A stretch of 64,000 nucleotides of DNA, taken from assembly GCF_009834535.1 (NCBI RefSeq), contig NC_045696.1, positions 5,768,001-5,832,000 on the forward strand, read 5' to 3'. The position numbers were made by a program, and so were the translations under genes. How positions within the stretch are numbered: position 1 is the first letter of the stretch; each line of letters opens with the position of its first letter. Positions 36,410 to 64,000 of this stretch are shown piece by piece. Origin of the DNA: Camelus ferus. Lineage: Eukaryota. A model generated the notes under the pieces. The model was not told the origin of the DNA. It made no database searches and worked only from the letters and a program-made list of their open reading frames with translations.

Positions 36410-36549
36410 TGTCCTTTAGACTTTTTAAATTTAGAAAGGTAATCTGTTTTGGCATTAAACACTAAGGAACAGCTGCATTAAAATAATAAATCATTTAAAA
36501 TGTTGAAATGAGGAAGATCTTTCTAATCTTACCCTTACTTTATTTCTAG

Positions 36550-37446
36550 GTCCAGTTTCTTTAGAAAATGGATGTGGCAGAAAAGCCACTCGAAAGAGAG
36601 TCTATTTAAGTGACTCTGATAACAATTCTTTGGAGACTGGTGAAAGTCTAAAAGCCAGAGCTGGAAATAATCGGAAAGTGCTACGAAAGTGTGCTGCTGT
36701 GGCTGCCAATAAGATAAAGCTGATGAGTGATGTAGAGGAGAATTCTAGCTCTGAAAGTGTCTGTTCTGGCCGTAAGCTGCCTCACCGCAACGCTTCTGCT
36801 GTAGCTAGAAAAAAGTTATTACATAATTCCGAGGATGATCACAGCTTAAAGTCAGAACTTGAAGAAGAGGAGCTAAAAGATCATAATCAAACATTACCAT
36901 TTTCCAGTTCTCATGCTGCCCAGAATACTGAAAATGGAGATTCAGAGTCAGAAAGCAGTTTGCGGGTAGCTCGGAAAAATTGGCATGCTAATGGTTACAA
37001 GTCCCATACTCCAGCTGCTTCTAAAGCAAAGTTTCTTAAAATAGAGTCTTCTGAGGAAGACTCTAGAAGTGATGATTCCGATAACGGATGTAACAGAGCT
37101 GCTGGCCCATCAGCATCTGGGCAGAAACTTAAGGCAGAAAGCGACTCAGACAAAGAGGAGGAAGCAGATTTTGAACCAAGAAAATATGGTGGTAGGAAGT
37201 ACAACGCAGGCCGCAAAAATGCTACTTTCCTTAAAAAAGCAAAGATCTTCAGCGATTCAGAGGACTCTGAAGAACAAGATGGAGAAGACGGTAGATGTCA
37301 TAAAATGGAAATGAACCTGAGTTCAGGGAATTTGAAGCATGAACCTGTTGCTGGGTCCCAGTGTTTCTCAGATCATGTGTCTGAAACTGACTTGGATTCG
37401 GATGATGACAAACAAACAAAAGAAAAACCAGACAGTCTTATGAAAG
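36550..37446 (+). CDS. BRWD1: BRWD1 large exon ([17 protein letters not shown]...KPDSLMK)
   Basis: ctag acceptor, aaag|gtaatt donor; 897 nt open frame (ORF 36630..37478). Confidence 0.96.
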
Positions 37447-38318
37447 GTAATTCAAAACATTTAACCTCAGTTCACTGATTTATTCTCACTGTCCTCCCTT
37501 CTCTGTAGCATAATACATTGTTTTTCCCCCATGAAACTTTGCCACCTGTTTTCTCTCCACTCATACATCCTCCATTAGTCTTTTCTGTGTGTGCATTTAG
37601 TTTTGCTCATGTAACAAGCAGCCTTGGCCATAGCTTTTTTTTATTAAAGATTTCACTTCTTGTATTGGTATGGAGATACTGTATTGGCTGTGGGTTTAAG
37701 AAAAGCAAAGGTGACACACATTTATAAGCTATGGTGATAACAGTTTGAGAAGAGCAAAGAAAAGATAGGTTGAAAGGAATGTGTTACTGACCTGTTTCTC
37801 TTATCAGGAAGTTTTTCTAAATGCTTTACGTTCATTAACTGGTTTAGTCTTCATATCTTATATGACGTAAGTACTATTTCTATCATTGTCCATTTTACTG
37901 ATAATAACTCTGGAGCACAGTTAACTTGCTGAATTATCCTGGTAAATGGAGACTGAAAAATATTAAAGAGCAGGAGGCCTCTAAAGCTAGGATTAAAAGC
38001 AGCATGTGATGGAACTTGCAAAATTAACAAGGTGCAGGGAGGCTGAGAATGAGTAGTTTGCAGACCTTAGTGCAGTGGTAAGAGAGCTTAGTTGTGTTCG
38101 TGTAAGTAAAGTATTTGCGTGTCAAGTGCTTATGCAGCTAGAAAGGCATGGGATGCTGTTGATGGGCTGTATTGCACTTGCTGAGGCTGAAGAAGTCACT
38201 GTTGTGAAGTATTAAAAGCCCAGCCCATTCACTGCCATCCTCCTTCCAAGTTAGAATCCCAAATTTAAGTTGTATAAAATACTGAACATTTAATTCCTTA
38301 ATATTTGCTAATTTTTAG

Positions 38319-39481
38319 ATTCTACATCACAAGACCATGGACAAAGCAGAAAAGTTTCCAGGAAAAGGGTCTGTTCCAGTGACTCAGACAGCAATTCAAA
38401 GGTGGTTAAGAAATCATCAAAAGCCAAAACGGGTCTCCTAAGAGTTCCTCGAAGATGTGCAACCACCGCCGCTAGTAAGATTAAGCTAATGAGTGATGTG
38501 GAAGATGTCAGTTTAGAAAATGTGTGTACTAGCAGCAAAAATGGAAGGAAGAAGGCCCTCCGTTTTGCATGTACCACAGCTAAGAAGACAGTGAGTGATT
38601 CTGAGGGAGAGGTAAGCTGTGAAGTGCCAAATGAACAGTATGCCTGTGAAGGGAGTCCCCTGGAGGCCAACTCACGAGGTAGCACAAAAAGTATTAGCCA
38701 GTCTTTAAACGGAGACTCAGACTCTGAAGGTATGCTGAGTTCAGGACACAAGAACAAGCATACAGGTAGTCACAAAACAAATGTTGCACCTTCTAAAACA
38801 GAGAATTCCTTGATTGGGTCTTCAGAGGAAGATTCAAAAAGCCATATTCCAGAGGGTGAGGTTGGTAGAAAATGTTCTTCTGAGTCGACTTTGGTGCAGA
38901 AAGCTACTGCAGAGAATAACTTTGAAGAGGAACTGAATTACGGGCTGCGCAGGTGGAATGGCAGAAGACTCAGGACCTATGGGAAGGCTCCTTTCAGTAA
39001 GACAAAAGTGATGCGTGGTTCACAGGAAGCAGCCGAGTCAGAAGTAAAAAGGAAGAGACTACGTCCTGAATTGGAAAATGTGAAAGCTTCTGAAACAACA
39101 GGGAGTTCAAAGTGTGGACCTGACACTGGTCCCAAATCTGATTCAGATTTGGGGTCTGCGACTGAATCAGAGGCTGACTGTACTGATGATACAAAAACCA
39201 AAAAGAGGAAAACGAAAGGAAAAGCAAAAGTAGTTAGAAAAGGTAAAACTTTTACAGCTAACATATCTAAAACTGTGAGACGACAAAGACAAAGCAAACG
39301 TCCTAGGTTAACTGTGGATGATAATGACTGGGAGGATTTGGACTATGCAAAGTCTAAAAGAGTTCTTCGACGTTCAAAGATAAAGACGAGAAATCAGGGT
39401 AGAAGGACCGTGAGATACCATGATGGGGATGATGATAGAGGCTTAGAAAATGTGTTAGATTTTGATGATTGCACCTTATGA
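38319..39481 (+). CDS. BRWD1: BRWD1 composite terminal exon: spliced at the 39242|gtaaaa donor (long isoform) or read through to TGA 39479-39481 (…ENVLDFDDCTL*, isoform-B-type C-terminus)
   Basis: ttag acceptor; continuous ORF 38402..39481; internal donor after GKAKVVRK is phase 1, compatible with the 49307 exon. Confidence 0.95.
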
Positions 39482-42023
39482 CCTTGAGGGAAAACCAGTT
39501 CATTTAAGGAGGGAATGGACTGGAATTTATAGTGAATGCTGGCTGTTGAAATTACTTTTTGTCCTACAATTCAGGGAATATATTTATATTTTTCTATGAA
39601 AAGTTACGAATGTGACTAAATCATGACTGTTATTTTATTTGCACTTGCCTTTGTAGCAGCATTCAGCACAGGTGCCAAAATACGCTTCACTTTGGGGGCA
39701 GATCTACTTTGACAGTATTTAACTACATAGAGCAGGGGTTTGAAGTATGTTAAACACTAGACATCCTGGTTCTCAAAGCCAGTGAGCATTACTTTCATGG
39801 TAGCAAGTGTCATACAGTTATTTTCTGAGTTCGTCAAGAGGTGGTAGTTTCTAATCCCAGCCCTGTTGTAGTGTAAACTCCATGTGACCTATGTTTACAG
39901 AGTCGTCATAAATACTATGTGCATACTGACGTAACAGTCATGGGAGGTGGAACCATGATCAGTAGGCAAGGTACCTACCACTTCTTTTCTTTCCCTGGCT
40001 ACTTGAGTAGAATGCATTATACCAGATTTGGTCATTTTCATTGAAATCGTTTCCAGTTTTCTTTCCAAATCCTGTTGGGTCTTCCTCTTTTTGTTTATTT
40101 TTAAGGAAAATATCCATTTTATTTTATAAACTTGAATTTATAAAGTGCCGGTAAATTATTTTTTTTAATGTTTTGATTGTATATTTTAAACCTTTAAGGC
40201 CAGACTATAGTGGCAGCATTTTCTTTTAAATTGTGCACTAACAAAATGCTATATAAATGCCTTTCTCAGATCTCCTGGTTTCCATGTACGAGATTTAACC
40301 AAAATCTTGGTCTTCCGTAGTCTCACTCTGTGAAATAGAGGAGTTCGTGTGCCTTAGACTTAGGTGTAAGTGTGTTCTTCAATAGTGTGTACAGGGCTAG
40401 AAGTATTTAAATTACATGTAGTTTCCCCCATCTCTATTGAAATTGTAGAGTTGAGTTTTGTTGAAAGAGTGCAATTGCAAATCTCTTTTATATAGGAAAA
40501 TAGTTTAATTCATTCTCCGTCTCTTTTAGTTTACTGCTGCCATGTGCAATCCCAGGCATTCTTTGCTGGTGCAACTAAGTATCTTTATTAGTGACCTCTA
40601 ATTTAAATCTAAGAAATTGTTCTGTATTGTGGGAAAATAATTTTCGAATCCATTTAAAGCAGAACTTTGACCACATCATCAGATACCATCGTACACTTAT
40701 TTTTGAGCCAAATATTTTTACTTGATAGGTTGTGCTACTCCAGACAGTGTAGGTGGCCATTCCTAGCTTGTTTGTGCCTGAAGATGGACTTGATTCAAGT
40801 GGTTTACGTATTTTGTAGCTGAGGGGTATGTTACAGTACCCCTATCCTTTGTTATTTATTGGCCCTAACTGTATTTGGGTTCAGACAAAACTAACCCTTT
40901 TCTCCTGTGTATCCTTCAGGTGGCAGATATGGAAAAGCATCAGACTCTGGTATCAGTGTTAGAATGTGCTTAAGTGTTGTTACTTTTTAGTTATCTATTC
41001 CATTTAACAGGGTAGAAAGTCCTTTCTCTTTCTACTCTGGTGTAAGGGGAAGGATGTCCTTAGACGTTACCAGCTGAGATAGGTGGGGTACCCACCTCTC
41101 TTTTGGTTGTTCAGAGAGCTATCACCACTTCAGAACTATGATGCTTTTCTTCTAAAAGCTCGTGTTAACTGTGCTGTTGACAGATTGAGTCAGGGAATTC
41201 ATCCTTGACTGTTGACCTGAAAAAAATAATGGAATGGGCTTTACTTCCCTAATTTTAAGAAATGGTGATAGATGTCATAGCTATTAATTTATTTTAACTC
41301 TTCTTAAGCTTCTGTTTTATATCTATTCTCAGGGTTATAACTCCATGTTTACCATCATCTGCAAAAGGGTACCAAAAAAATCCATAAATAAATAGGGAAT
41401 ATATTCATAAACACATGAGTTCTTTTGTTTGGTGAAATGATACTTTGACAATTTAGGCTTCATCAATAGAACTGTTCTTATCTTTTGGACTGAATTAACT
41501 GAATTGATTGGCTAGTCAACCAATTCCTAATTTTTCATTTTGTCCAAAATGGTTAGACCCTAGTATGTAGAAGCAGTGTTTTGGTTTCATCCGAAAAAAA
41601 ATGAGAATTGGCCTGGTGACTTTGAAAGCATGGTTGACGATGGTAGCTTCTCAAGTTCTGAAGTAAAACTAGGGGATTATAGAGGGAATCATTTTTATGG
41701 GTTTTTTTGGTCATGGTGCTATTCCTAAGGGTTAACTTTGAATATGTGACACACACTCCTAAGTACCTTTAAGGAAAATTAATAAATAATTAATAGTTCA
41801 AAATGTTTACATTGAGCACTAGAACATGTTTGACTTTTTTTTTTTCTATTTCTCCTTATGCGAAATGAGCAGGGATGTAATGCACAGATGTACTTTAATG
41901 TGTTTGGGGTCAGTTGTGTTTTTCTTGTGAAAAAAGACAAAAGGTTACAGGTTAAATGTGAACTGATCCAGAAGTAAGTGCTGTACTTTCCATTGCACTT
42001 GAAGTAATTTAATGGTGTATCTG

Positions 42024-42054
<31 letters not shown>
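42024..42054 (+). repeat. A31 homopolymer in the BRWD1 proximal 3'UTR / last intron
   Basis: Read directly. Confidence 0.95.
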
Positions 42055-42056
<2 letters not shown>

Positions 42057-44599
42057 CTACTGTGGTTGTGTATGTCCAAAGTCCTATGATTTTATTCATT
42101 TATGGTTAAAAGGTTTGAGGTGTATTTAGGTTTGACTTCTGATTCCTTTGAAAGACTAATTTTACCAAGCGTATTAAGACAAAAAGATTTCAAACATTTA
42201 GAAAAGTAAGTGAGATTTTTAAAAGCTCTTTTTTTCCTTCATTTCCTGCTTATTTAAAAAGGGTATACTGACAGTGTATAGTAACTTCTGAATAAAAGGA
42301 AGAGTTTATCCCATTTTCATATAATTCCTAGGGTAATTATTCTCCCTTTTTTATTTTAGGGGAAAATCTGATTAAACCTTTTGTAAATTTAGTACTCCTT
42401 TGAAAGAATGATAAGGCATTTACAGCTTCTAAGTTACAACACAAAAGTTACTTCTAGATAGTTGAAGAGTTGTACCTACAAAAGAAAGTTTTATGGTAAG
42501 AAAAAGAGGCAGGGGGGAAAGAACTTATGTTTTAGGAAGAGGCACTTTAAAACCTAGAAGTGCAAATGGGGAAAGGAGACATAAACCAGTAAAAATGCCA
42601 TCTGAAGGTACTACTGTCCAAAAATAAGAGTAAGACACATAACCAAATCCTTCACACCCCATTGGTTGATGACCTCTTAAATAAAAATTCTTAACTTAGA
42701 ATAACGTTGGGCCTATACTACATTCCCTGTCCCTCTTCTAGCCTTTTTTCCTTTAGAATAATCAGAACACAGAATTTATTAACTTCACTGTATGATATTA
42801 AAAACTAAAATGAAAGGATTTTGTTAATCCCTTCTGTCAGTACAAATTGAGTTTGATTGTGTCACCTGAAAAAATTGAGAGGTTTCAAGAACATTGCTAA
42901 AGGTACATACAATATTTTTGGTTTTCCTTTCTACTCAGTTGTTTTGACTTTTCAAGTAGTATTTAAATGGCTAGAAAAGGTCTTTTTGCCTTGCCTTTTT
43001 TTATAGCTGAAATGCCATCTCATTCTTTTCATTGATACTAAGTTAATATATTTATCAGTTATCTTGTAGTTGTCACCAGCTCCTTTAGTTGGTACATTAT
43101 ATGGAAATTGTAGTTCAGTTTTTTTAGTATGGTGACAAGCACCTTCATTATAGAAGAGCTTTCCATCTGTTCATTATTTAGTTACATCTCTCATTCTGTT
43201 GTGGGTATCAGGGAACAGTAAAGCAGAAACCCTAAGAAATTTGCAACTAACAATAAGACGATCTCTTAACCTCTAGTATTTCGGAACATGCAGAGCAAAC
43301 CGAATAAATTTGTCAAAGGTAGGGAAAAATGAAACATAGAAAAACCCGGTCCAACTAGATTAGTAAATGCTCATCCTACTTGTAGCACAAATTGTGCATT
43401 TAATGGAAAGGATTGAACTGTAAACGGTGTTGGTGAGGGCTGTGTATTCTTTTCTCACATTTTAAGAGAAGTTTTTACAGCTATTTTTTAAGGTTACAGA
43501 TGCTGCCTGAGGATGCATGGGAATTCTCAAAAGTTTAGAGAAATTTCTACCAATCGTAATCTGTCAAGCTGGTTCCAAATATATTGTTAATTTGGTAGAA
43601 AAATATCAAGACTCCTACTTGGTATCTCCTCAAGGATTGCTCTTCCGGGCTGGCAGGAGGGAGGCGGGGCCGGGGCATCCGCAGCATGAGGGCGGGCCCT
43701 GCAGACCCGCAGGCAGTCTCTGGCAGAGTGTGCGTGCTACAGGCTGTCTGCACTGGTAGTGTGATTGAACTTAATTATCAGTACTGCAGCATGTTGTCTG
43801 GTCATGCTTTAGTCTTTACGCTCTTTTAAGGTAAGTTTTATCATTTATTAAAATTTTAATGGGGATTTGGGCTGTAAAGAGAAAGGCATTCTGAGGATTG
43901 AGATGAGACGGCGCAGACTGGACTGCAGCAGCCAGCCCGACCTGCCATTGGTTCCACAAAGGAAAGTATTTAGAAATTACCGCCTTTTTTGATCAGTGGT
44001 TAAATGTTAAAGGAATCTTTAATAAGTTGAAGTTGATTTTCTAAGTGTTGATCCACACTGAGTCCTCGGACTGTTCAGGTACATTCAATTCACCTATAAA
44101 ATTCTAACCGTTTTACTGGAGCTGGTCAGAAAGGCAAGTCTTTAATTTTCCACTCCCTCATGCGAGTTCTGCTTTAACTTACTAAATTCACTCATAACCA
44201 CATCTAAGGCTTAGCATTGTCAACTAGGAACCAGTTCTTTTTGACAACTAACTGAAGTAGTAGAGTATGATAAATTTAATACTGTGATAATTACAAGCAA
44301 ATGTTTTTTTTGTCTTTTTATTTTTTTTTTAAACTACTGCAAGCTTCTAGCTGGTTAATTCTGTGAGGTTTGCAACATCCAATCAGTTTCCCTTGCAATT
44401 CACCTTTCCTTTTTGTCTGAAGCAGCTCCCCAACCTTCATCCACTTGTGATTTCTTATGCAGGCAGAATGCAGCGCAGTTTGTTGTACGAGCCAGGGCAG
44501 GGGAAACTGGAGGGAATCAGATGTGCTTGAAAGGGGCTGCCATTGGACTGTGGCATTGCTGCGTTTCATTCGTAAACTAATAAAGTAGATTGAAAACCC

Positions 44600-45040
44600 A
44601 GTATTTACTTCTGATACCTTCTTATCCTGCCTACGCTGGTCAGAAATGATCTGAGCTATCTCTTTAAAAACTCAAGCGGGGCTGCCTTTCACCTCTCCAG
44701 CACCTTCTTCCTCTGAGCCTCAGAAGCTCACCTGCCATTCATTCTTTTTGATCCTTGTTTGTTCTTTGCGCTGTTGCCTGTCTGTAACTTCTAATTAGTC
44801 CACATTCATTCTTACACCACTTCCTCAGGGCGGCTTTCCCTGACCACCCACACTCCCCAACATTCAAATGTCTTGTTGCAGATTCTCCAGCATTTTTTCT
44901 CTCTCCTTCACAGCACTTGTCACAATTGCAGTTTTTAAATGTTGTCAAAATTGCAGTTTTAAAATGTGTATAATTATCTGATTACTGCATTTTCCTCCAA
45001 TAAACTGATAGCTCTGTGAGAGCAAGGATCATAAAAGAGT
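44600..45040. mobile_element. L2 fragment
   Basis: ttcctcagggcggctttccctgaccacc...cttcacagcacttgtcaca...gctctgtgagagcaagga pattern. Confidence 0.6.
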
Positions 45041-48000
45041 ATCATTAAGCAGATAAGTTCCCTGAATTCATATAGTTTTTATCAGATTTAAAAAAAAAAG
45101 TTGCAATAGCCATCACAACTCTTGTGAGAATCATTAAGAATGACTGGTTCCCACTAACTTTTCTAGGGATGAGAGAAAACTGTGTAAGGATCTAGACTAG
45201 CTGTAGGTGCAGAACAAAAGAAGGCTCTGTGGTACCCATCACTGAGTGTGCTGAAGACTTTAGTTCATCTCTTCAACCATAGAAGGACCAAACTAGTGAA
45301 GAACAACTCTAGGTTACAGAATTACTTCCTACAGTCTCTTTACCTGACACTGTCATACTGAAGTTGACTTCTCAGTGTTACCAACTCCCCCTAGAAAAAT
45401 GTTAAACCCAGGGAGTTACAGAAAACACGGTTCTATAGTCCTTCTTTAAAGAGACTGACAGTTTGTGGTATCTTTTGGAAATTTATGCTTTAGGGACTAT
45501 CAGTGATAACTGCTATTTGCTTCCTGAGTTGTGGTCTTTTTCATTGCTTATCAGTGAAGGGCAGGGGCAGAGAGTGAAGAAAGGACGTCTCAGACCTGCC
45601 CTGGTAAGAGGCTTGCAGGGGAGAGGTTATTTACAGCTTAGAGGTTTCCTCTCCATAGGGGTTGGATTTATCCACCAACCACAGCAGCAAGTAATGTCAA
45701 TACAGTATATGAAATAGGCCAGTATGTTGTTTTCATTTTGATTCAGGCATTCTTTTATCTTTTTCCATTCTCAAATTTGTTTATTATACACACAATTAAA
45801 ATGCTGATTAGATGAAAATTTTTTATACTTCTGTAGCAATGATGTGACGTTTACTTTGGATTTAGGAAAACATCTTTGTATCATGGAATATCCTAATTGG
45901 AATATGAGTCATCCTTAAAATACAGAAACTAGGGATTATTGCTTTGAATCAAACTAATGTTTACATCCAAGTTGCTATTCACTACAGACCTATTAGAGTA
46001 TGTAGTGATCCATGAGTTACAATTTAAAGTGGTCATCTCGGTAAGCTGTGATGGAGCGCTATTAAAGATACATCTTCACTCTACTAGTGAGGTTTGACCA
46101 CACCCAGATAGGGAATCATTTACAGAAAAGCAGAAGCACCTCCAGCACTGAATGACTGTTTCAACACAGGTGGCTGACCCAATACCATCTGGGACAGCAG
46201 GACCTGTGGGATGGTACCGATTCGTTAGTATTGAATGACAACATCACAAATGTATTGTCAGAGCTGTATCCTCCAAAATTTTTAAGCTTGTACCCTAACA
46301 TATAAATTGGATTTCTCTCTTACCCTGAACTTCCTGTGTATATTTCTAAAAATTAGTTTTCTCAAGAAGAATAAAGCACTTTATAATTTACTAAGTTCTC
46401 AGTAATAAAGTTAACACTGACACGTATGTATTATTATATTTTTAAAAATTCCCCACACCATCTTTGGCGTTCCTCAGATTGTTTTTATCTTAATGAAATT
46501 CCCATTTTTATGGTCTAAGTCTTTAGAGACACGGCTTTATCAAGTTGGAGTCACTGTATACGATATAATTTAGTCCTGTATTCTCTCCCCTCTGGACATA
46601 GCTAAAATTTCCTTAAAATATTTTTAAAAGCCTGGGTTATCTTAACTTTTGTGTTATCTTAACTTTTCCCTTATTTTGGATTACAAATGTCTTAATTATA
46701 TTTACTAGGTTCCTAAGTTGTCAGTATAGGTGCTTCCATCACTACATCAGAAAGGAATTAATTACTGCAACTTAAATCATTTTGTCCCACAGAAATTCTG
46801 GGTGTAATTTTCCATCTGTACCGTTCAGCTGGGTGTGCTGTTGGGAATGAACCAGTAGTCTATTTTTAGTATTTTTTTTTCAGCGCGCAAATGGATGCCT
46901 GCGTTTAGTTGGCTGATAACAGCACATCATCTTACCATAAAGCACAAATTTCAACTTAATTTTGCTATATATTTTTAAAAACTTCATTTATCTGTTGTAG
47001 TCTATTTATATTCTAACATTTACTAAACATTGATTTAATGTGTTAAAGATTCACTTTGAATCTAGGGGTGGTTTGCAGAGACAGAAGTTTATAATTTAAA
47101 AATTCCTAAGGAAACATTCTTGGAAGGTGAAAACGTTAAGCCACGCCTCCATTCACTCCCCTATCTCACGTGCACGTGACTCCGCGGAGCCCAGCCGAGG
47201 GTGCGGAGGGCACGTGAATGGGCGCGGCCATGCTCCGTCAGCTGCGAAGCTTGTCTTTAGAAATAGGATTAATCTGGGAAAGCATATGGATCTTGTAACT
47301 GGCAAAAAGGACGTGCATTTATGGGGGGACGCTTTTAGTAAAGTAGTTCGTAATGTGTTTTGGGGGAACTTTTATGGGTCTTGGAGAAAGCACAAGCACA
47401 TCTTTGAAATGAGTTTGATAGACTTTAGGTAAAATCTGAAGGGCTTTGCTTTTGAGGGTGGAACATTTTCCTCTTTAGTCCTTGGTCTACTGTTAACATG
47501 TCAACCCACAAGCCATTTTCACCTGTGCTCACTGCCTTTGGTGACAGAAAGGTAAACATCTCCTCTCACAAAAGGAAAAACCAAGAAGGTTGGTAGTTTG
47601 TAGTTTCACTCTACAGAGTAACAGTGTTGACAGCTGACAAAACCCTTACTGTCTAGTCCTTAGCTGTGAGAAGGATGTGTAGTGGAAATGAGTCCTCGGG
47701 GTGCCGTGCGGTTACTGCAGCATCTGCAGCGGCTGCTTCCCGGCTGCTGGCTGGCTGGAACCCCGAGGCGGGGCCCTGTAAGCTCGCCTCCCAGCCAGAC
47801 CTGGGAGCCCTGCAGACAGTTCTAGGTGGTTTGACTGTTAACGGCAGCAAGACTAGGTCGCCAAAAGATGAGGCCTAACATTCAGGAGCTAATGAACTTC
47901 AGATGCATTTTTATCAAGAAGTACTTTTTGCCCCAGAATAGTGCTAATTAACCTTGTATTTGAAATTTGAAAATCTGGCTTTGAGATGCTGGCAAAAATA

Positions 48001-49306
48001 AAAATGTTTTGAGCCCATCTAAGCTGGTGGACGTGGAGTAGTAGGCCCGGCACCACGTGGCTCCTCAGCCCTCCAGCGTGATCCACCTGAAGCCTCCCGC
48101 CCAGATCGCCCCAGCCCACAGGAAGGACTTGCCTCTGGAGGGCGCTGCTTTTTTTTTTAAACACCTTTATTGGGGAACAATTCCTGTACAGTAAGCTACA
48201 CATATTTCAGATGTACAGTTTGATAGATTTTGATAGATGTACACACTTATGAAACCACCACAACAGTCACTCCCCAGGAGGTGAAAATTTCGAACTCCTG
48301 ATTTATCCCTTCCCACCCCTTTTACCCCCCCCCCCCCCCGTAACCGTAAGTTTGTTCACTGTGTGAATCTGTTTCTGATTTGTAGGCAGAATGCTTTTTG
48401 TCCTGCCTTCTGACTGGTGGATCCCGTCACAGTTTCTAGCTCTCAGCTACAGTACCACATCCAAGCTGCCCTTGCCCCTTAGTTTAGGCTGGGTTTCTAG
48501 AATATGTTCTCACAGCACCCCGCACTTCCTGGTTCCTTACAGCCGCTGCACTTACACGTGTAGAGTTTGTTTTGGAATCAGCCTGGTCCTCCCTGTGCCC
48601 AGCACGTACCTAGCTCAGAAAATACTTGAGTAACAATGAAACTAGAGTCTAATTTCAGTTATATAAAATGCTGAAATAATTTGAAAAAAATGAATCTAGG
48701 ATTAAAACCACATTTCGGTTATATAAAACTAATATACAATTCCTTTTTATCTGCTAGTGACCCATGTAATTTTTTTGAGTAAAGGAAGTACTTGTGTTGG
48801 AATGAAAACCTTAAGGATCCCATTGGGCCAGGGCTTTTGCAGCATCACAGTCATGGTGGCGTTTCCTTCTTGTTTAGGTTCTAGGAAAATTATTTCAGAA
48901 ATCCTATGGACCATTTTAAAGTAGTTCAGCATAGATTAGAAATTATACTAAAAAATTTAAACCTATATAGTTTTATTTTTAAAAAGTGCTTTTAGGTCAG
49001 TGGCTTTATGACACTGAAGGTACTTAACATATTCTTACAAGCCTGCTGCTGCTGTGACAGTTATCCTCACAGATGGTAAAGTATGTGCGGTGCGAGGGAC
49101 CCTAGCTTCCACTCAAGACTTCCTTTTGTAGACAAGGAAATGGAAGCTTATATCAATGTCAAAAACGTGTAGTATCACTGATGATCACTTATGTCTTTGT
49201 TTTTTATTTAGCATCGTGAGTAGGAATGTATTGTTGAGGAATGTAAGTAGTAAAATCTTGTGTTACAAGGTTTTGGCATTTACATGAACTTTCACTCATT
49301 TTTCAG

Positions 49307-49698
49307 AATCTGTTCCTAGAGACAGAGAACCCAATACACAAATGAGAACATGTATGCATAATCAGAAGGATGCAGTGCAAATGCCTAGTGAAACTCTGAA
49401 AGCAAAAATGGTACCTGAGAAAGTTCCCCGCAGATGTGCTACTGTTGCTGCAAATAAAATAAAGATAATGAGTAATCTAAAGGAAACGATTTCAGGACCA
49501 GAAAATGTCTGGATTAGGAAGAGTAGCAGAAAACTGCCCCATCGAAATGCTTCTGCTGCGGCTAAGAAAAGATTACTGAATGTTTATAAAGAGGATGATA
49601 CAACCGTAAATTCTGAAAGTGAAAAGGAGCTAGAAGATATTAATAGAAAAATGCCCTTTTTAAGGCGGTTCAGATCCTGGAAAGAAAAAGCACAGTAG
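49307..49698 (+). CDS. BRWD1: BRWD1 distal last exon ([21 protein letters not shown]...RSWKEKAQ*), isoform-A-type C-terminus
   Basis: tttttcag acceptor, phase 1; ORF 49342..49698 matches the remembered human isoform A C-terminus; TAG followed by TGA. Confidence 0.93.
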
Positions 49699-52669
49699 TG
49701 ACTATGAAAATGTAGAAGTGGAATTGAGAATCAGGGGCCACAATAAACCAGCAGTTGCATTCTGCTCCTAGCTCTAACATTAATCCCTTGTTGGCACCTT
49801 TTGAGGAATTTTCTAAAAGCCATAACCCAGTGGGTCCAAGTGGGAGGACAGTGTCCTCTTAGTCAGCCCTGTACAGACACACCCTACAGACAACTGTGAG
49901 GTGGAACTAGATCACGGAGCCTGTAGTTGCAGAGGCACAAAGAAAAGAGAAATGGCCTGTCCTGAGCTTATTCCTTTTCAGAAAGGAAGGGCTGTGAAGA
50001 AATCTCTTGATTCCTTAGAGGAAGAAAATAATGGGAAGTGTACAGGGTCTGTAGCGAAAACTTCAAGGACTGAAAACATTTCAAAACATCAACCTGATGC
50101 TAATTTTCAGGGTTCTGCATTAAAGTATAAAAATTCAGGTCACCATGACTATGGGTGTCCTTACTGAAATAAGAGGGGGGAAAAATTAGGCACATTTCAA
50201 GAGGAAGTGCCATTGAGTATATCTTTTGAGTGAAGCAAATACTTTAACAAGATCCAGTCCCTATAATTCGCAACCCCAAAAGTCAAAAACCACTTCAACT
50301 AGAAGGACCGGGGATTCAAAGACGGGGATATTGATAAATGAGTTCTGAGATAGAGTGCTGGAAATAGAAAAAATCCATTAATGTCTTATTTTGTTTATAA
50401 TATTGGAATTCATACTGAATGATGACCACTTGATATGACTAATTCAGGGAATATATATTTTTCTATGAAAGCTATGAATGTGACTATCAACTTCTTTTTC
50501 TCATTTTTACTTTCACGTAGCAGCATTTACAAAGATGCCAAAATGTGCCTCAGTATGAGGCAGGTCTTAGTTTTAATCAGTTAGAAAATAAAAAGTATAG
50601 AGTAAGATCAAAACAGTCATATTTTTAGATGATAGTCAAATCTTATGTTTCTCTTCAGCACCTTAAAAAGTTAGAACTTTGTGAATACTTTGAGAAAATT
50701 TATTACAATCTCATCACAACAAACTTTAATGGCAGCATGTCTGGGCTTTTTCATTGTGGCCTTCACTAGGATTAGAAAATCTGGTCTTGATACTATAAAG
50801 AATTTCTTTGCAATGAGATTTAATTTGTTGTTAATGGGTATTTGTTGAAATGAAAATTCACCAGATTAAATGAACGCACTGTCAAATCTTTTTAACATAG
50901 TAACTATTGGAAAAATGAATTGTTATAAGCTAGTTTTTTTCCCATTAAAAAATATCTGTGAATATTAATATATGATTTGCATGTGTATATCTGAAAAAGT
51001 AAAACAGAAACCTAAGTGTTTCTTTTCCTTTTTCGTCAAAAGACTAATGTAATGCATATTTTTTGGTTATACAGCTCAACCAAGTGTCTTGATTACTTGA
51101 GAAATTTGTTTGTGGTTGCATGTCTGCTTAAAAACAGGCTTTTTGTTTTCTTTTTCTTTGCATAAGCCAGAATATTTCTATCCTATGGAGTCTGTTCTTT
51201 GCTCTGTTTATAGTCTGTTTTTGTCTGAAATACTGATACTAGTATCTTGTTACTAGTACAGATGAGAAAGGGAAGAATTCCTAATAAACTGCTAATATTT
51301 TTAGGTGCATGGGGTTTGATTTCTGATCTTTAACAAAGTGTTTAAACCTATTTCCGGTCCCATCTTTACACTTAATTTCATAGAAACTTCTTATTGGGTA
51401 TGTTATGTCCTCAACAAATGCCATAAAATGAAAATGTTAAAATCTCAAGAGTATTTTATGCAAAATTTTTGACAGTTTCAGTGTCATGAAGATTTCATTT
51501 TGATTTCATTTGGGGTTAATTTCTGTCAGTACTTGAGATAGTATCATCAGCCTTCTTTCATAGTGGAATCCTTTTTCTGATTTAGTATTTAATTTGAACA
51601 TATACTTGCCTATTTTTAAGTGCTTGGCCTAATTTTATTTTAACAACATGAAATAAGCATTTGTTTAAGACTTAACATTCTTGTAAAACTGTCTGAAATG
51701 TATGCAGAATTTTAATCATGGCCAAATGTACTATTATTACCCTATTTATAATTTTAATTGGCTTTACAGAAATGATTTCTTCATAATGTAACTGAAATCA
51801 AATTGAGGATCTTCCTGGTAAAAATGAAGTTATTTTATTCAACAAAAGGACTAAGACAAAGTGATACCCAAACTTTTATTCTGCAATTGTCATTCTATAA
51901 ATCCAGGAGTCTTAACGCAGTTTTAAAATATTGCACTGGTAATCTCGTTTATTCCTAGCTCACTAACTATACCCAAAGTTTCCTAAGCTCTTACTGTTAT
52001 AATCTTATTTGGTCAATTGGTCGTATTGTTTATCCTTAAATGTTCAAATTTTGCTTCAAAACCCAATATATTATTTTGCAGTAATGCGCAAAGTTGCTAA
52101 ATACTAATTTTATGTAAATGCATTTGTTGATCATTGTGTACCCACACCTTAAAACAAGATGTTTCCAGCAACAGATTTCTGAGATTGTTTTTCATCTCGA
52201 GGCTTCCTAATCCTAAATCAGTACTTAACTTTGTGACTATTGATAGGGTTCCAGAATGTAAGCAATGCCCTCTAGTTTCAGCACAACTAAATCTAGGTAA
52301 ATGCTATTTTTTTCGTTGCAATATTCGATATTTTCATTTAAACTATGTTACAGTGTCCCCTTTCCTCTCCTGCTTGGATTAGTGCTCCGTTAACTTTGTG
52401 TTTCAGCAAATTTGAAAGATGAGAACCAATTCAAAAACCATTACATACTTTGCTTATTACTGAGAGGCTATTTAAAGAGAAAGCAAATTTTGTACTAGAA
52501 ATGGCCAGGTTTTAAAAAAGCAGCAACTATTTTTGCATTCTCATGAAATCTTTTAGATCAGCTTGACAATCATCAAATTTTGAAATATGATTTCCTATTG
52601 CCAGAGTAAAGGCTCATTTTTACAGCATCACGAAGCAATGTATTTCTTCCTGCCCTACCACCCGCACTC

Positions 52670-53560
52670 TGTCCACTGTCCCGAGGACGCGCCGGGCCCG
52701 GGAGCCGGCACCTACCTGGGGGCGGTCGCAGTTTGGAGCCGGGTGCTTAATAAACCAAAGCTCACCCTGTCACTCCTAACAGAACAAAACGGAGACGGAG
52801 TTAAGGAAGGAAAGGCAACCGGGCTGGCCTCTTCCTGCAGCGTCAGGCAGGGGCCGCGGCGGCTGAACACCTTCTCTCCGCAAGTCCGTTACCTGCCAGG
52901 ACAGGAGGCCCCGCCCCCTGCCCGCACCCCCCCAACCCCCACCCCCGGCCCGCCTCTAGTGTCTTGTTTCTCTAGCCTGGAGTCATCCGATTTCTCGGTG
53001 GCCCCGCTGCGGGGCAGAAAAAATATGCTGGGTTTGCCATGAGTGCATGCGCGGGGACGTAGGGGGGCGTGGCGTTGCTTGGGGGCGTGGCGTTGTTTAG
53101 GGGCGTGGCTGCGGGGTGAGCCCGGCGGCCTTCAGGGGCGCGTGCGCAAGGCGCATGCGCTTCCTGTGGCGCCGCAGTTAGCAGAAGGTGAGGGAGGTGA
53201 TGGCCACGTTCTTCGGGGAGGTGGTGCGGGCGCCTTGCCGAGCCGGGACCGAGGACGAGGAGGAGGACGAGGAGGGGAGGCGGGAGACGCCTGAAGACAG
53301 GGAGGTCCGGCGGCAGCTGGCGCGGAAGAGGTGAGGTCCCGGGCGCGGCGGCGCGGTTGGCGGCCGCGCTCTGCCCCGGCGGAACCGGCCCCGGGCGTGG
53401 AGGCGGCGGCGGGCTCGGCGGAGGGACGGCTTCTCCCTTCGTGCCGCGTGGGTGCCGCTCGCTCCCTGCGGGCGCGGTGCGTCTCCCGGTGCGCGGGTTC
53501 GCCTGTCTGGCTCTTGGACGTCAGACGACTCTTGAAACTTCGTTCCCCGCCCCGCACTTC
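52670..53560. promoter_or_regulatory. CpG island / PSMG1 promoter with three GGGGCGTGG GC boxes, NRF1 palindrome GCGCATGCGC (53151-53160) and adjacent ETS core CTTCCTG
   Basis: Abrupt GC- and CpG-rich segment surrounding exon 1; motifs read directly; no TATA box seen. Confidence 0.9.
53200..53330 (+). CDS. PSMG1: PSMG1 (proteasome assembly chaperone 1, PAC1/DSCR2) exon 1 coding part (MATFFGEVVRAPCRAGTEDEEE...QLARK)
   Basis: ATG in good Kozak context (gtgATGG), ag|gtgagg donor; peptide matches the PSMG1 N-terminus. Confidence 0.95.
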
Positions 53561-53599
53561 AGTTAACGTTCTCTGTCAGTAGCAGATGGATAGATAGGT

Positions 53600-54340
53600 T
53601 TTTTTTTTTAAGTACTATTTCCAAACACAGAAATTGGAGAAAATAGTAAAATAACAGTTTCGCCCCTTCCAGTCACGTAAATTCAACAGTTATGAGGCTT
53701 TTGCCACATTTTATCTCCCACCACCCCTGAGGTGAGAGCCCCAGTCGCCGTGGCCTTTCACGCCTGCAGTTTTCAGACTGCGTCTCAGACGATCTAGGAA
53801 TTTTCTTACGAATGCTGTCACCACCCCGACACAATAATACTTTGGGGATACTATTTAGTAGCCAGTCCATGATCAGGTTTATCCAGTTGTCTCAGACATG
53901 GCATTTTGCAGTGGGTTTCTGTAAATCAGAATCCTGCCAAGGCCCACATTTTGTCTCTAGCTTACTTGCACTTAGGGCAGCCCCCCTCCTTTTTCACCTC
54001 TGCCGAGAGACTGATTGTCCTGTAGGGTGTCCCACGCCGGCTCTAGATTCGTCTGCTCGCCTCCTCTTGGCGTCATTTGTGCAGACGTGTGTCCATCACC
54101 TGCGTTTCCTGTAAAGGGAAGTTCCTTCTAGAGCCTTGGTCAGGGTGCTGCTGGCAGCAGTGCCTCGGAGATGGTGCTTGCTGTTCGTTAATGCACGCTA
54201 TGCCCGGTCGTCCTACTTTTAGGGCTGCTGAGATGCATTGATCAGCGTGTCAGCTGGACAGCCTGGTCCCTCCGGTCCAGTTCCTCATGAACTTTGCATC
54301 GAATGCTTTTACCTGTTAGTCGACGTTGACTGAATCCATT
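53600..54340 (-). mobile_element. Old L1M 3' end fragment in PSMG1 intron 1
   Basis: ttccaaacacagaaattggagaaaatagt...attcaacagttat...ttttgccacattt. Confidence 0.55.
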
Positions 54341-54489
54341 AGCTCCTTAGGATTATAATTATGTTCTTTATAAAATTAAAGTTTGCATTTTACTTACTAC
54401 AAAATCACACATACAGTATCCTCTTTGTCATAATAAGTTACTAAGTATGTTTAAATTGCTTTAGATATGTCTTTTGTTTCTCGTGTTAG

Positions 54490-54596
54490 GGAGGTGCGGC
54501 TCCTTCGAAGACAAACAAAAACATCTTTGGAAGTTTCTCTGCTGGAAAAATATCCTTGCTCCAAGTTTATAATTGCTATAGGAAATAATGCAGTAG
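54490..54596 (+). CDS. PSMG1: PSMG1 exon 2 (EVRLLRRQTKTSLEVSLLEKYPCSKFIIAIGNNAV)
   Basis: ttag acceptor, g|gtaagt donor; 107 nt. Confidence 0.97.
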
Positions 54597-55561
54597 GTAA
54601 GTGGAAATGGTTTTGATTACACATTTTGTTGAAAGCGCAAAATCTGAAGTTACTTATGTACTCCATCATAAAAGATTTCAAATGTCTGTTACCTTTGCAG
54701 AAAAAGTCATAGCTGAGTAACTGTATCTGACTGAAATCTGTCCCTGCTCATGTGGCCCTGTTTTTGTTTTTGGTTTTTTTTTTGGTTAACTTAAAAAATA
54801 AGATTTAAAGGGAATGTTCTTGGCTTCAGGAACTTACAAACTCAAGAACGCACTGTTTCCAGTGTCCAGGTTTCCTTACGCTTCTCTGCCTGTTTTGCCT
54901 GGGAGGGACAGGAGGCATGTGCACACGGCTCCCTGGTAGCAGCGGCTCTTGAATGTTTTTGAACTAACAGGTTCCTTTGAGAACATAATGAGAACTCTAA
55001 AAATAACAATTATTATCGCTACATTTTTCAGTACTTAATCTCTGAGATCTTTAGATGCATGAATGCATTTAATAGGTTAAAGTCAAAAGGGTGAAGAGTT
55101 CAGCTAGAACAGCACACACACGCAGGTACAAGGACACAAACCTGTGTAATTTTCGGGGGTTCGCGGGCTCAGAGGAGAGCCTTGGAGAACTCCGGTTGAG
55201 GTTTATTGCCCTGGAAGGCATCCCTAGTGCTGGTACGTGGTAAGTAACTGCTGACTCATTTACATAAAGTTCTCCTGGCCTGATGTTTTCCAGAAGAGTG
55301 TTACATGGTGAGATTATGGTCAAGTCTGTCCTTAAAACTGTCTTCTCAGTTCCTGGTTCCAATATTGTCTGTACTCAGGGCAAGGCCTTTACCTTCTTGA
55401 GACCTCAGTTTCCTTTTCTGCAGGATGGTGGTGTAAGGCTGATGGTCTTGAATGGCTCTTTTAACTCTTAAGATTCTAGAATAACTTGGATTTATTTTTT
55501 AGTGAATAGAAAGTGCCACTTGTGGAACCAAACACTAACTTATGTGAATTATTTTTCACAG

Positions 55562-55713
55562 CATTTGTGTCATCATTTATCATGAACTCAGGAGTCTGGG
55601 AAGAAGTTGGTTGTGCTAAACTCTGGAACGAATGGTGTAGGACAACGGATACTATACATCTGTCCCCAACAGAAGCTTTTTGTGTGTTTTATCATCTAAA
55701 ATCGAATCCCTCG
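55562..55713 (+). CDS. PSMG1: PSMG1 exon 3 (FVSSFIMNSGVWEEVGCAKLWNEWC...KSNPS)
   Basis: acag acceptor, tcg|gtatgt donor; 152 nt. Confidence 0.97.
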
Positions 55714-57460
55714 GTATGTGGGACCTAACTTGTATGTTCATGTAGTAGGTACCTAGGCATCCTTTATGTACTGTTCATGTGAAGTCCTTGTTCCTTAGTG
55801 TCTGCTTTTGGGCTGAGGAATTCTGCCTGTAGGCAGTGGTAGTAACCCCACTTTTTTGTTTGTATAAATATTAATGTGACTTGTACAGTGTGTTGGTAAA
55901 CTTCTGAGGAAATTGTGAGATAAATTTTTTAGAAACAAACCATAAACATTAGATATCTAAACCTTGCCCTTGTTCAAAAAATTATTTAAGCTGGCAACTT
56001 TAAGCGTGTTCACACTGTAGAAGCAGGGAGTCCTGCTTTGTGGCTGTTTACCCAGGATTTAACCAATGCCTGGGACATCCCAGAAACTCAGTTAATACTG
56101 AACAAAATGAGTGCCTTATGCATTCTATATACAGTTCTGTTGATGTCAACTTTTCATCCTAATCTGATTCATCTGGATTTTTTAAGTTATAAAAGATACT
56201 CTGTAGCTGGTGCTGAGTGGTTTCATTGGATCACATTTTCCTAATCTTAACCTTGGGTCCATTCAGGGAAAGCAGCATCTTGGGGCAGTTTGGGAGGCAG
56301 GTCAGGCAGGTGAGGTAACCAGGCGGGTGATGTATGTCTCCGCATCTGCTTGTCGGACAGAGCACCTGTCACAGCTGCTGAACGCTGGGTCAGGGGCCAG
56401 GGGCAGGGCTCGCACAAGGGAAGAAGTCAGTAGTCCCCTAATCTTATAATGTTGCTTATCTCAAACAGTAAGGACCGAATGTTAGCCTTGGGAACTGCAA
56501 AACTTGCTTTCATAAGACTTACAGTTTGTTCCTGTAACCTGTGATCTAAAGTTACTGAAGTTTACATAAAGATTTTTGTAAACATCCAGTATTGTAGGAA
56601 ATAAATAGTAAGGAAGCTAAGCATGTTCTTTATCTGATCCTTAATGGAAAGTGTTCACTCTCGAATAGACTGTGAAGGTCAAGTAGGAGAAATTTCTGTT
56701 ACTGCGTTTAGTTATGCCATTGATTGGTTAGGTGTCTCTTGCTTGTTCAGAACCCATGTGTGTAGCTGACTGTATATCCAGTCTTCTCCCCTCCCCTGTC
56801 CCTGGGCCCCTTTTTTCCCTCTTGTGCTTCCTTTGTGTTGTTAAGTGTTAGTGTTTCTGGCAATATTTTAATGGAAGACATGGTTGACTTCTCTGGATAA
56901 TAACATCCCATGAGCATTAATAATCAGGAATCTCATCCTTTGATGGCAATGTGGCATTGCAAGTTTTTTAACTTCGAGCATATGGCCTGGAACTTGGTTT
57001 CTAAAATACCATCTTCACAGACATCATTACTGTTTTAGGACACTGCTTGGGCTGAGGTGCTGTCAGGCTGCTTTCGTTTCTCTGACAGCACCTCATGTTT
57101 TTGTAATGCTTTCTGAGTTTGGTCTGCACAGTGTGTGACCCCAAGAAGGGCAGCAGGACTGGTACTGTCTGTTTTATAAAGAGGATTCTGGTACTATTCA
57201 CTGCTGGTATCTTCAGAGTCTCCAGTGCCGGCCCTCGTGGTTGCTCTCAGTGTGCACTTTATTCTGATGCTAATCACAAGTAGTGGCTTGATTCTTAAAT
57301 TTTAAATTTCAAAGGAAAATAAATACGCCAATAGCAAATAAAGCAAAACAAGTGTTATCCAAAGATTGTATTAGGATTCACATGATACGTATGTGATGAC
57401 AGTTTGGAGCGTGTGTAACATTTATTTGACCTGATGAAGAACTTGGGATATGATTTGCAG

Positions 57461-62510: not shown

Positions 62511-63522
62511 TTTTTTTTTATTGATTTATAATCATTTTACAATGTTGTGTCAAATTCCAGTGTTCAGCACAATTTTTCAGTTATTCATGGACATACACAT
62601 ACTCATTGTCACATTTTTTTCTCTGTGAGTTATCATAACATTTTGTGTATATTTCCCTGTGCTATACAGTGTAGTCTATTCTACAATTTTGAAATCCCAG
62701 TCTATCCCTTCCCACCCTCCACCCCCCTGGTAACCACAAGTCTGTATTCTCTGTCTGTGAGTCTATTTCTGTCCTTTATTTACGCTTTGTTTTTGTTTGT
62801 TTGTTTTTGTTTTTGTTTTTTAGATTCCACATATGAGCGATCTCATATGGTATTTTTCTTTCTCTTTCTGGCTTACTTCACTTAGAATGACATTCTCCAG
62901 GAGCATCCATGTTGCTGCAAATGGCATTATGTTGTCGGTTTTTATGGCTGAGTAGTATTCCATTGTATAAATATACCACATCTTCTTTATCCAGTCACCT
63001 GTTGATGGACATTTAGGCTGTTTCCATGTTTTGGCTATTGTAAATAGTGCTGCTATGAGCATTGGGGTGCAGGTGTCATCCTGAAGTAGATTTCCTTCTG
63101 GATACAAGCCCAGGAGTGGGATTCCTGGGTCATATGGTAAGTCTATTCCTAGTCTTTTGAAGAATCTCCACACTGTTTTCCATAGTGGCTGCACCAAACT
63201 GCATTCCCACCAGCAGTGTAGGAGGGTTCCCCTTTCTCCACAGCCTCTCCAGCATTTGTCATTTGTGGATTTTTGAATGACGGCCATCTGACTGGTGTGA
63301 GGTGATACCTCATTGTAGTTTTGATTTGCGTTTCTCTGATAATTAGTGATATTGAGCATTTTTTCATATGCTTTTTGATCATTTGTATGTCTTCCTTGGA
63401 GAATTGCTTGTTTAGGTCTTCTGCCCATTTTTGGATTGGGTTGTTTATTTTTTTCTTATTGAGTCGTATGAGCTGCTTATATATTCTGGAGATCAAGCCT
63501 TTGTCGGTTTCACTTGCAAAAA
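62511..63522 (-). mobile_element. Young 5'-truncated L1 with perfect 16-bp TSD tttaaagggaaaattt
   Basis: ORFs 62820..63428 and 63149..63496 are ORF2 C-terminal segments; TSD at 62495-62510 and 63523-63538; highly similar to the 30868-31849 copy. Confidence 0.94.
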
Positions 63523-64000
63523 TTTAAAGGGAAAATTTAAATAACTTTCTTTAACGTTTCCATTTCTTGCTCTGAACATGATGATTTGCGGGCGGGGTTG
63601 GAAGAGTGCTGTTTTCCTAGTGACCAAGTACCGTCCTCCTGGGTCACTGCGTAGTTTCTGTCCATTGAAAGTGTTGTTTGGGTAACCATGGGGAGTTCTC
63701 TCAAGTGCCCGCTGTGTGGACCCACAGTGTCTCGTGGGCCACAGCCTGGAGGTGGCGCAGGTGGCCGTGGCGCCAGCCAGGGTCGGGGGGAGCAGCGGCC
63801 AAGGTTAACCCGAGGAGAGGCTCCCGGGAAGGTGGCCGTTCAGCTACACTTGGCAGATGGGGGCTCCTAGTGGGTAGGGCTGTGCAGAGGGAGGCAACGT
63901 GAGCACGAAGTGGGCACGTTCCGGGCGCCTGGGGAGAGCGGCGTGAGTGTGGGTGGGAGTGGGGTGCAGAGGGAAGTGAGCTCACGTGGGAGGGGTGCGC

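Follow-up and report, generated by a model that had tools for sequence, protein, structure and literature searches.

The stretch of DNA analyzed here, referred to as the window, comprises 64,000 nucleotides of the Camelus ferus contig NC_045696.1 (assembly GCF_009834535.1, positions 5,768,001 to 5,832,000, forward strand). It contains the 3' end of camel BRWD1, the gene of a bromodomain/WD40 chromatin reader encoded in the Down-syndrome region of human chromosome 21. When the segments 36550-37446, 38319-39242 and 49307-49698 were spliced, the product matched the C-terminus of BRWD1 isoform X1 of Camelus bactrianus (P0059) in 737 of 737 residues. Judged from its sequence, the disordered BRWD1 C-terminus is made up of three tandem paralogous exon units, named X, Y and Z, rather than two. 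The 3' untranslated region (3'UTR) that follows the coding part of Z begins, after 49698, with fossil coding sequence homologous to the full exon 38319-39481 and its UTR. The units are located as follows:

36550 to 37446, plus strand: unit X, the first of the three units and an internal exon, with the basic motif and a phase-1 donor AAAG/GTAATT; identified by its open reading frame (ORF), the 737/737 match and its splice sites.
38319 to 39242, plus strand: unit Y in its internal-exon form, with an internal phase-1 donor AAAG/GTAAAA at the place homologous to the X donor.
39243 to 39481, plus strand: tail of Y, read only when Y is terminal ('isoform B' type), 78 codons with the vertebrate-wide RRSKIKTRNQGRRTVRYHDGDDDRG module and the stop codon at 39479-39481.
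49307 to 49698, plus strand: coding part of unit Z, 130 codons with the third basic motif and TAG at 49696-49698; orthologous to monotreme unit 3, with matching C-termini in all placental superorders.

The Z exon starts at 49307, directly after AG, and with the acceptors 36549/36550, 38318/38319 and 49306/49307 all three units open in the same phase. Every unit possesses the basic motif R[RK]CA..AA.KIK.MS. The phase-1 donors of X and Y (AAAG/GTAA after 37446 and 39242) are located at the homologous codon ..RK/G.., and the counterpart in Z is decayed. X and Y were paralogous over their full length (blastp, 34% over 318 aa, E 2e-37). The coding part of Z was nearer to X (46%, E 9e-21) than to Y (35%, E 4e-10), and its strongest high-scoring segment pair (HSP) in blastn joined 49419-49660 to X 36674-36903 (67%, E 2e-14). 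Y alone reads on in frame past the homologous donor, for the 78 codons of the tail, and is the sole unit with an intact tail in the camel window. This tail hardly differs between camel, horse and aye-aye and can be aligned across amniotes. X, Y and Z are neighboring, similar exons on the same strand that share homologous splice sites and phase, and their common sequence is no interspersed repeat, i.e., they show the features of tandem exon duplication.

Searches for related families and further copies gave little. Pfam contained no family matching X or Y and yielded only sub-threshold noise for Z, and Rfam gave nothing relevant within 39400-51000. No fossil of the tail was detected by shuffle test in the intron between X and Y (z-scores of -0.9 and 0.1), and no fourth unit was found downstream of Z within the window. 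The Y peptide, when searched against the camel's own genome, found only X, Y and Z, i.e., no unit outside BRWD1. Among the 27 matches of the search in representative proteins, none was recognized as having the length and architecture of PHIP or BRWD3; hence, no outgroup could be obtained from PHIP/BRWD3.

The isoform products were examined at the protein level. The initial annotation had proposed that an internal donor in the proximal exon Y connects it to the distal exon Z. The last base before this donor is 39242, the GT is at 39243-39244, and the exon is joined to 49307; the donor is real, since the spliced product containing it agrees completely with the annotated camel isoform. The same agreement bears out the statement that only about 130 codons of the distal exon are still coding. 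When X was joined to the full Y, 680 of 686 residues were identical to the C-terminus of the Y-terminated form of Camelus dromedarius (P0181). The 130-residue Z peptide had 46 matches in the protein search, all the named ones being BRWD1, and it forms the extreme C-terminus of isoforms in baboon, sloth, bat and mouse. Junction peptides of the type ...KGKAKVVRK/E[SF]VPRDR... were found in isoforms of Papio, bat and mouse. In Daubentonia, isoform A as named by NCBI (2224 aa) ends with Z and isoform B (2173 aa) ends with Y; they are 51 aa apart, and a gap of 52 aa (130 versus 78 codons) is predicted from the window. The human BRWD1 isoforms A and B are 2320 and 2269 aa long, respectively. Proteins ending with Z and proteins ending with Y are both annotated in camels and many other mammals, largely as predicted models; on the basis of these products, Y may behave as a hybrid internal/terminal exon. 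The sampled words of 49288-50600 were all present in 18 of the 24 sequencing runs listed, and there was no RNA run among these 18.

Behind the stop codon of Z, the following features were assigned:

49655 to 49665, plus strand: approximate site of the frameshift in Z, in or adjoining the run CCCTTTTTAAGG; the exact base is our estimate.
49699 to 50345, plus strand: fossil coding sequence, i.e., the decayed remainder of unit Z and its tail, with homologous blocks in several frames and stops in all.
39568 to 39705, plus strand: conserved block of the Y 3'UTR, paralogous to 50441-50567.
50441 to 50567, plus strand: conserved block of the Z 3'UTR, paralogous to 39568-39705 and also kept in a retrocopy.
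50568 to 52765, plus strand: rest of the Z 3'UTR to the polyadenylation site, with AATAAA at 52749-52754 and no homology to the region behind Y.

In blastn of 48000-56000 against 36000-46000, four HSPs were obtained, three of which were collinear with Y and kept a nearly unchanged distance of about 10.9 kb from it: 49422-49517 versus 38443-38532 (71%), 49782-49835 versus 38804-38857 (74%) and 50441-50567 versus 39568-39705 (74% over 140 nt, E 3e-13). In the full DNA alignment, Y and Z were collinear from the acceptor to about 50567/39705. The string pairs quoted in the initial annotation as examples of this collinearity were read directly at their places (49803/38825, 49892/38918 and 50300/39400). 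The claim that collinearity with the exon 38319-39481 continues past the TAG at 49698 was confirmed by a shuffle test: the post-stop part of Z (49699-50440) aligned to Y 38700-39481 with a local score of 41, as compared to 13.4 ± 1.5 for 200 shuffled sequences with a maximum of 19. As controls, the corresponding part of X and the reverse complement gave z-scores of 0.1 and 0.2, respectively. By segment, the z-scores between Y and Z were 15.8 for the unit remainder, 6.7 for the tail and 25.6 for UTR versus UTR. Thus, homology does run into both UTRs, as had been claimed, and it ends at about 50567/39705. Nothing collinear was found past this point, and the supposed extension of the duplication over several kb was not borne out: the fainter matches that had been taken as hints of it (41101/51061 and 41340/51360) correspond to no collinear HSP, the other matches having E values of at least 0.1 and scattered offsets.

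At the protein level, tblastn with the peptide of 38312-39481, a check suggested with the original claim, found two post-stop blocks in different frames with a joint E of 8.5e-7. The first places Y151-194 at 49740-49871 (45% over 44 residues) and the second places Y202-271 at 49889-50098 (29% over 73 residues). The ORF 49826-50167 is in the frame of the second block and can be regarded as a remnant of the Y frame, as had been proposed for an ORF at this place. When the 2.09-Gb assembly of the same animal was searched with 49700-50600, there was no match beyond the sequence itself, the UTR block of Y and a single retrocopy (such match counts being lower bounds). With just these three matching places, the shared blocks are not a common transposon. 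A likeness of the post-stop sequences due to chance, to low complexity (Lys/Ser/Glu-rich) or to a shared repeat element might have been suggested by the charged low-complexity sequence that both exons encode and by the weakness of the single protein blocks (23-34 bits). This explanation is extremely improbable and was rejected, since the shuffle z-scores of 6.7 to 25.6, the strict collinearity at a near-constant offset, the lack of signal from the paralogous exon X and from the reverse strand, and the restriction of the block to three places in the assembly all refute it.

The loss of the reading frame in Z could be followed from the coding part into the UTR. The Z frame was aligned with monotreme and bird last units up to ..EDINRKMPF. 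The +1 frame from 49664 scored best against last-unit types (40 for monotreme unit 3 and 39 for unit 3 of Alligator, as compared to 24 ± 4 for shuffled sequences), and its scores against Y-type units (24-26) were the same as those of the shuffles. The last 12 coding residues of Z can therefore be explained as a frameshifted reading, because the +1 frame resembles last-unit sequences. After coding frame 1 (start modulo 3), the homologous blocks follow in the frames 2, 0, 2, 0 and 2, i.e., with five frame changes, and each of the three frames contains 10-18 stops within 49699-50345. Together with the collinear homology, these lesions substantiate the claim that the 3'UTR of the distal exon contains fossil coding sequence: homology to coding sequence, frame-breaking lesions and an intact orthologue in an outgroup protein (P0109, see below) were all found.

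The ends of Z were compared in 38 placental proteins, none of which continues into the Z remainder in the ancestral frame. The majority (26/38; Euarchontoglires, Laurasiatheria and Xenarthra) finish with ..FR.WKE.AQ. One sloth model stops inside this sequence, one Mirounga row was uninformative as the pattern had matched the first unit, and the other ten, from four afrotherians, four bats and two rodents, terminate sooner or are read in a different frame there. Of the afrotherian proteins, three (P0088 from elephant, P0085 from aardvark and P0090 from elephant shrew) share an end that is shorter than in other placentals, ..SE[SH]E[KN]ARR[YH], and the end of the fourth, from Tenrec (P0095), differs again; the shared afrotherian end would represent an additional lesion or splice event specific to that lineage. 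Short predicted isoforms of birds (P0010, P0012, P0015, P0017 and P0023) and platypus (P0110) also leave the last unit at the spot of the placental frameshift (about 49655). The departure point of the bird, platypus and placental ends is after ..CPESS, ..REMRSP or ..RKMPF. This shared point may represent an old alternative protein end, or read-through gene models.

The distribution of the units was determined with a hidden Markov model of the unit run over 19 selected proteins. Three units were present in 15 of them: five from placentals (with the third cut short), one of monotreme type, two from turtles, one from alligator, five from squamates and one from tuatara. The remaining four (two from birds, one crocodile isoform and one opossum fragment) had two units, and so did four of four further marsupial proteins, which end with Y and the tail. 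Two unnamed anamniote-like representatives (P0170 and P0172) contain one recognizable unit followed by the tail. Among non-therian amniotes, all proteins examined have the tail on the unit in last position. The monotreme-type protein P0109 (2607 aa) has X, Y and Z, and its third unit is complete with tail, ending with ..RTRNQGRRTVRYNDGDDDDRG.... Its units are the best reciprocal partners of X, Y and Z of the window with 51%, 43% and 56.6%, respectively, the match of its unit 3 to window Z extending over 106 aa (E 4e-33). Because the P0109 units match X, Y and Z, the X-Y-Z triplet predates the split between monotremes and therians, and Z was a full terminal exon at that time. Metagenome scans for orthologous DNA with a degenerate motif pattern and a UTR block pattern found no locus.

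Units 1 and 2 are near-identical to each other within tuatara (P0007) and within alligator (P0114), not between the two species. Such likeness within a species is suggestive of concerted evolution, or of a recent re-duplication, of internal units in sauropsids; exchange or recent duplication between units clearly occurs in BRWD1.

Trees of the coding part were calculated from the first 135 residues per unit with 50 rows, or with 52 rows including the two anamniote-like sequences. A partial opossum X, two crocodile units (from the isoform lacking one unit) and three camel units duplicating those of the window were left out. In these trees, placental Z joined monotreme unit 3 with a support of 97-99 in the Shimodaira-Hasegawa-like approximate likelihood ratio test (SH-aLRT), and this clade joined the last units of sauropsids (reptiles and birds) with 91-92. 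Mammalian X and Y joined each other with a support of 85-89. Since the coding-part trees group the units in this way, Z would be orthologous to the ancestral terminal exon, and Y would be a copy at an internal position. Most likely, it is Z, and not Y, that represents the ancestral terminal exon, and Z is no young copy of Y.

Several points weigh against Z as the ancestral terminal exon. The grouping of Z with sauropsid last units at 91-92 comes from a quick tree of about 140 columns and is not decisive. In the approximately unbiased (AU) test, a clade of mammalian Y and Z was not rejected for the coding part (difference in log-likelihood, delta lnL, of 2.9; p 0.41). In a tree of the unit remainder (45 rows, with the Z fossil read in its two block frames), the fossil was placed with mammalian Y units (SH-aLRT 90), apart from monotreme unit 3. 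The union of the fossil with monotreme unit 3 was not rejected by the AU test either (delta lnL 4.5, p 0.25), and the fossil forms a very long branch of 1.88 in this tree, which makes its placement unsafe. The reading also leaves the origin of the Y tail and the Y UTR block unexplained, as monotreme and sauropsid proteins show the tail on the last unit only. The identity of 74% between the two UTR blocks is high for a separation before the monotreme split, unless both are constrained. P0109 is a predicted protein, and its assignment to monotremes rests solely on three motifs that equal those of platypus P0110. Finally, no Z was found among the marsupial proteins examined, so that the truncation cannot be placed on the therian as opposed to the placental stem. 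The deep history of the units is, judging by these trees, only partly resolved.

The initial annotation had read the polarity the other way round, with the proximal exon Y as the parent terminal exon and Z as a newer product of an intragenic duplication of Y together with its UTR, which later decayed past its 130 codons. The coding part of Z argues against this history by being closer to X than to Y and by grouping with monotreme unit 3 and sauropsid last units. The complete third unit with tail that is read in the monotreme protein indicates a full terminal exon of at least crown-mammal age, and the tail is carried by the last-position unit in all non-therian amniote proteins examined. The collinearity of Y and Z over unit, tail and UTR, the Y ends of the marsupial proteins, the position of the Z fossil in the remainder tree and the standing of the Y+Z coding clade in the AU test are in line with a derivation from Y. 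Nevertheless, a parental Y appears improbable, and Z as the ancestral exon is the best reading of the polarity even with an AU p of 0.41.

The disagreement between the trees, with a Z-type coding part and a Y-like remainder, could also be explained by a mosaic produced by unequal crossing-over between neighboring units or by non-allelic gene conversion between them. In that case, the 130 codons at the 5' end of Z would be ancestral, and either about 49740-50570 would have been overwritten from Y in stem therians or placentals, or the Y tail and UTR would have been copied from Z. The 74% identity of the UTR blocks fits such an exchange, and so does the tail on Y, which was seen in therians only; the near-identical units 1 and 2 of tuatara and alligator indicate that exchange or recent duplication happens. 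On the other hand, the AU tests were non-significant both ways, and the remainder tree that places the fossil with Y is affected by its long branch. Furthermore, the block right behind the frameshift (49664-49747) looks to be of Z type and not of Y type, and the seemingly mammal-specific tail characters (RNQG and the W in WEDLDY) are ancestral given the anamniote-like sequences. A mosaic origin is thus considered unlikely.

Three approaches to the polarity were set aside. A table of identities between a pseudo-translation of Z in the Y frame and all units was discarded, because the alignment to window Y had served to construct this pseudo-translation, which favors Y as a result. When single units were compared with the fossil by tblastn, the scores were too weak to rank lineages (56.6 bits for the camel's own Y, 53.5 for tuatara unit 3, 51.2 for gibbon Y and 17-40 for most others). 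The supposedly mammal-specific characters RNQG and WEDLDY were rejected as proof that the Y tail came from a mammalian Z, since P0170 and P0172 show RNQG and P0172 has, by eye, a W at a comparable place.

Taken together, it is probable that BRWD1 contains three old units, with Z as the ancestral last exon cut by a placental frameshift and Y as a hybrid exon. The ancestral last exon would have consisted of one unit, the conserved tail (RRSKIRTRNQGRRTVRY and an acidic run) and the 3'UTR. Z would be that exon, once of about 390 codons, and in monotremes and sauropsids it would still be read through to the tail. Such a terminal exon natively encodes ..RK-GK.. as AAAG/GTAAA, which is a good 5' splice site. 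After a tandem duplication, the downstream acceptor presumably made the upstream copy usable as an internal exon. X would have lost everything behind the homologous donor, and Y would have kept the tail, the stop and the UTR block. On the placental stem, an indel near 49660 would then have shifted the Z frame, adding 12 new residues and the TAG. This single frameshift would have come first, and the remaining approximately 260 Z codons would have decayed within the first ~650 nt of the 3'UTR of about 3.07 kb, the first third of the coding sequence being kept.

The two placental isoform types would follow from the alternative use of Y. When the donor at 39242 is used, Y would be internal and spliced to Z, yielding the long protein of the 'isoform A' type, which contains three motifs and lacks the tail. 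When cleavage and polyadenylation take place after Y, 78 more codons would be read, yielding the 'isoform B' type, in which two motifs are combined with the tail. As the Z form lacks the tail and the Y form lacks the third motif, the third motif and the tail would be mutually exclusive in placentals. A further-reaching proposal is put forward tentatively: in placental BRWD1, a frameshift at least about 100 million years ago may have stripped the vertebrate-wide tail of RRSKIRTRNQGRRTVRY and the acidic run from the last exon, leaving the tail strongly constrained on Y only; the choice between splicing and polyadenylation at Y may switch between functionally different chromatin-reader isoforms, the tail having a function of its own; and the shared 3'UTR element may tie their regulation together. 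If this proposal is true, the 'canonical' long isoform has three basic motifs and no tail because the frameshift removed the tail of the last exon.

The conserved UTR blocks of Y and Z have no Rfam match. The invariant pieces of this patchily conserved shared block include AATTCAGGGAATA, TATATTTTTCTATG, AATGTGACTA and TAGCAGCAT. A conserved RNA structure of the block was unsupported, with one compensatory change for 30 predicted pairs in three sequences. The end of the Z exon was located with the help of the retrocopy at G000:C1:60943294-60946150 (loci L002, L003 and L009), which is 5'-truncated and lies on the same contig, 55 Mb from its parent. It matches window 49969-52649 at 75-83%, the match going on to the AATAAA at 52749, and lacks window 50217-50344. 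Its 3' end consists of AATAAA followed by an A-rich run and then by unrelated sequence. This retrocopy signature shows that the fossil was transcribed as part of a polyadenylated germline mRNA with its end at about 52765, and that the Z 3'UTR is about 3.07 kb long. Thus, the exon does not end at 50570, as had been annotated.

Isoforms A and B of BRWD1 (also named WDR9) are formed by the same exons as described here, and the Z-peptide and Y-tail ends are annotated in many mammals. A literature search for BRWD1 and exon duplication returned no report of the homology between the two ends, of the three-unit repeat or of fossil codons within the 3'UTR, a matter on which the original papers on the isoforms of WDR9 (Ramos 2002; Huang 2003) may bear. 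In passages of a preprint on the BRWD1 structure, coil or disorder is all that is stated for the C-terminal ~900 residues. In passages of PMC4284233 and of a CRL4B preprint, C-terminal isoforms were unmentioned. BRWD1 is stated to be required for gametogenesis in the abstracts of PMC4284233 and PMC9606253.

Duplicated terminal exons and UTRs are a reported class of tandem exon duplication, according to passages of Ivanov & Pervouchine 2022 (PMC9013439). Common to that class and BRWD1 are neighboring homologous exons with homologous splice sites. In the cases described there, the choice is mutually exclusive among intact copies, whereas in BRWD1 splicing joins the upstream copy to the downstream one via a donor that lies within coding sequence, and two thirds of the downstream reading frame are gone. 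Y would also resemble the hybrid internal-terminal exons described in a preprint (bioRxiv 10.1101/2021.05.27.446076), being predicted from sequence and annotation to be internal (donor 39242) or terminal (stop 39481, own UTR). It would differ in that its hybrid nature is traceable to Y being a paralogue of the terminal exon. Like pseudogenized exon remnants, Z shows decay behind a lesion, is recognizable by homology and has an intact frame in outgroups. Unlike an untranscribed pseudogene, the Z remnant sits in the 3'UTR of the long isoform, and a paralogue of the module that Z has lost is preserved in the exon upstream of it.

BRWD1, a well-known gene, thus provides a further example of processes that are already known, and contributes a modest piece of gene history. 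Its seemingly 'featureless' last ~900 residues consist of one exon unit repeated three times. A tail that is conserved from anamniote-like sequences to mammals is absent from the long isoform and kept by the shorter isoform alone, from which isoform-specific hypotheses for experiments follow. More generally, a duplicated terminal exon may turn internal through a donor inside its own coding sequence, and a 3'UTR can hold dead coding sequence, which is relevant where conservation of a UTR is read as regulatory.

Some observations concern the surroundings. The G+C content was 0.52 in window 52001-54000, just past the BRWD1 polyadenylation site, as compared to 0.31-0.42 around it; this rise may reflect a CpG-island-like stretch of a neighboring gene. 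Window 62512-63525 matched G000:C1:60947937-60948959 on the opposite strand with 80%, i.e., as an inverted match near the retrocopy, with weaker matches elsewhere there; this 1-kb stretch is probably an interspersed repeat. On the minus strand, window 31204-31710 contains an open frame of 168 residues resembling, by eye, the C-terminal part of LINE-1 ORF2, and it is probably an intronic repeat fragment.

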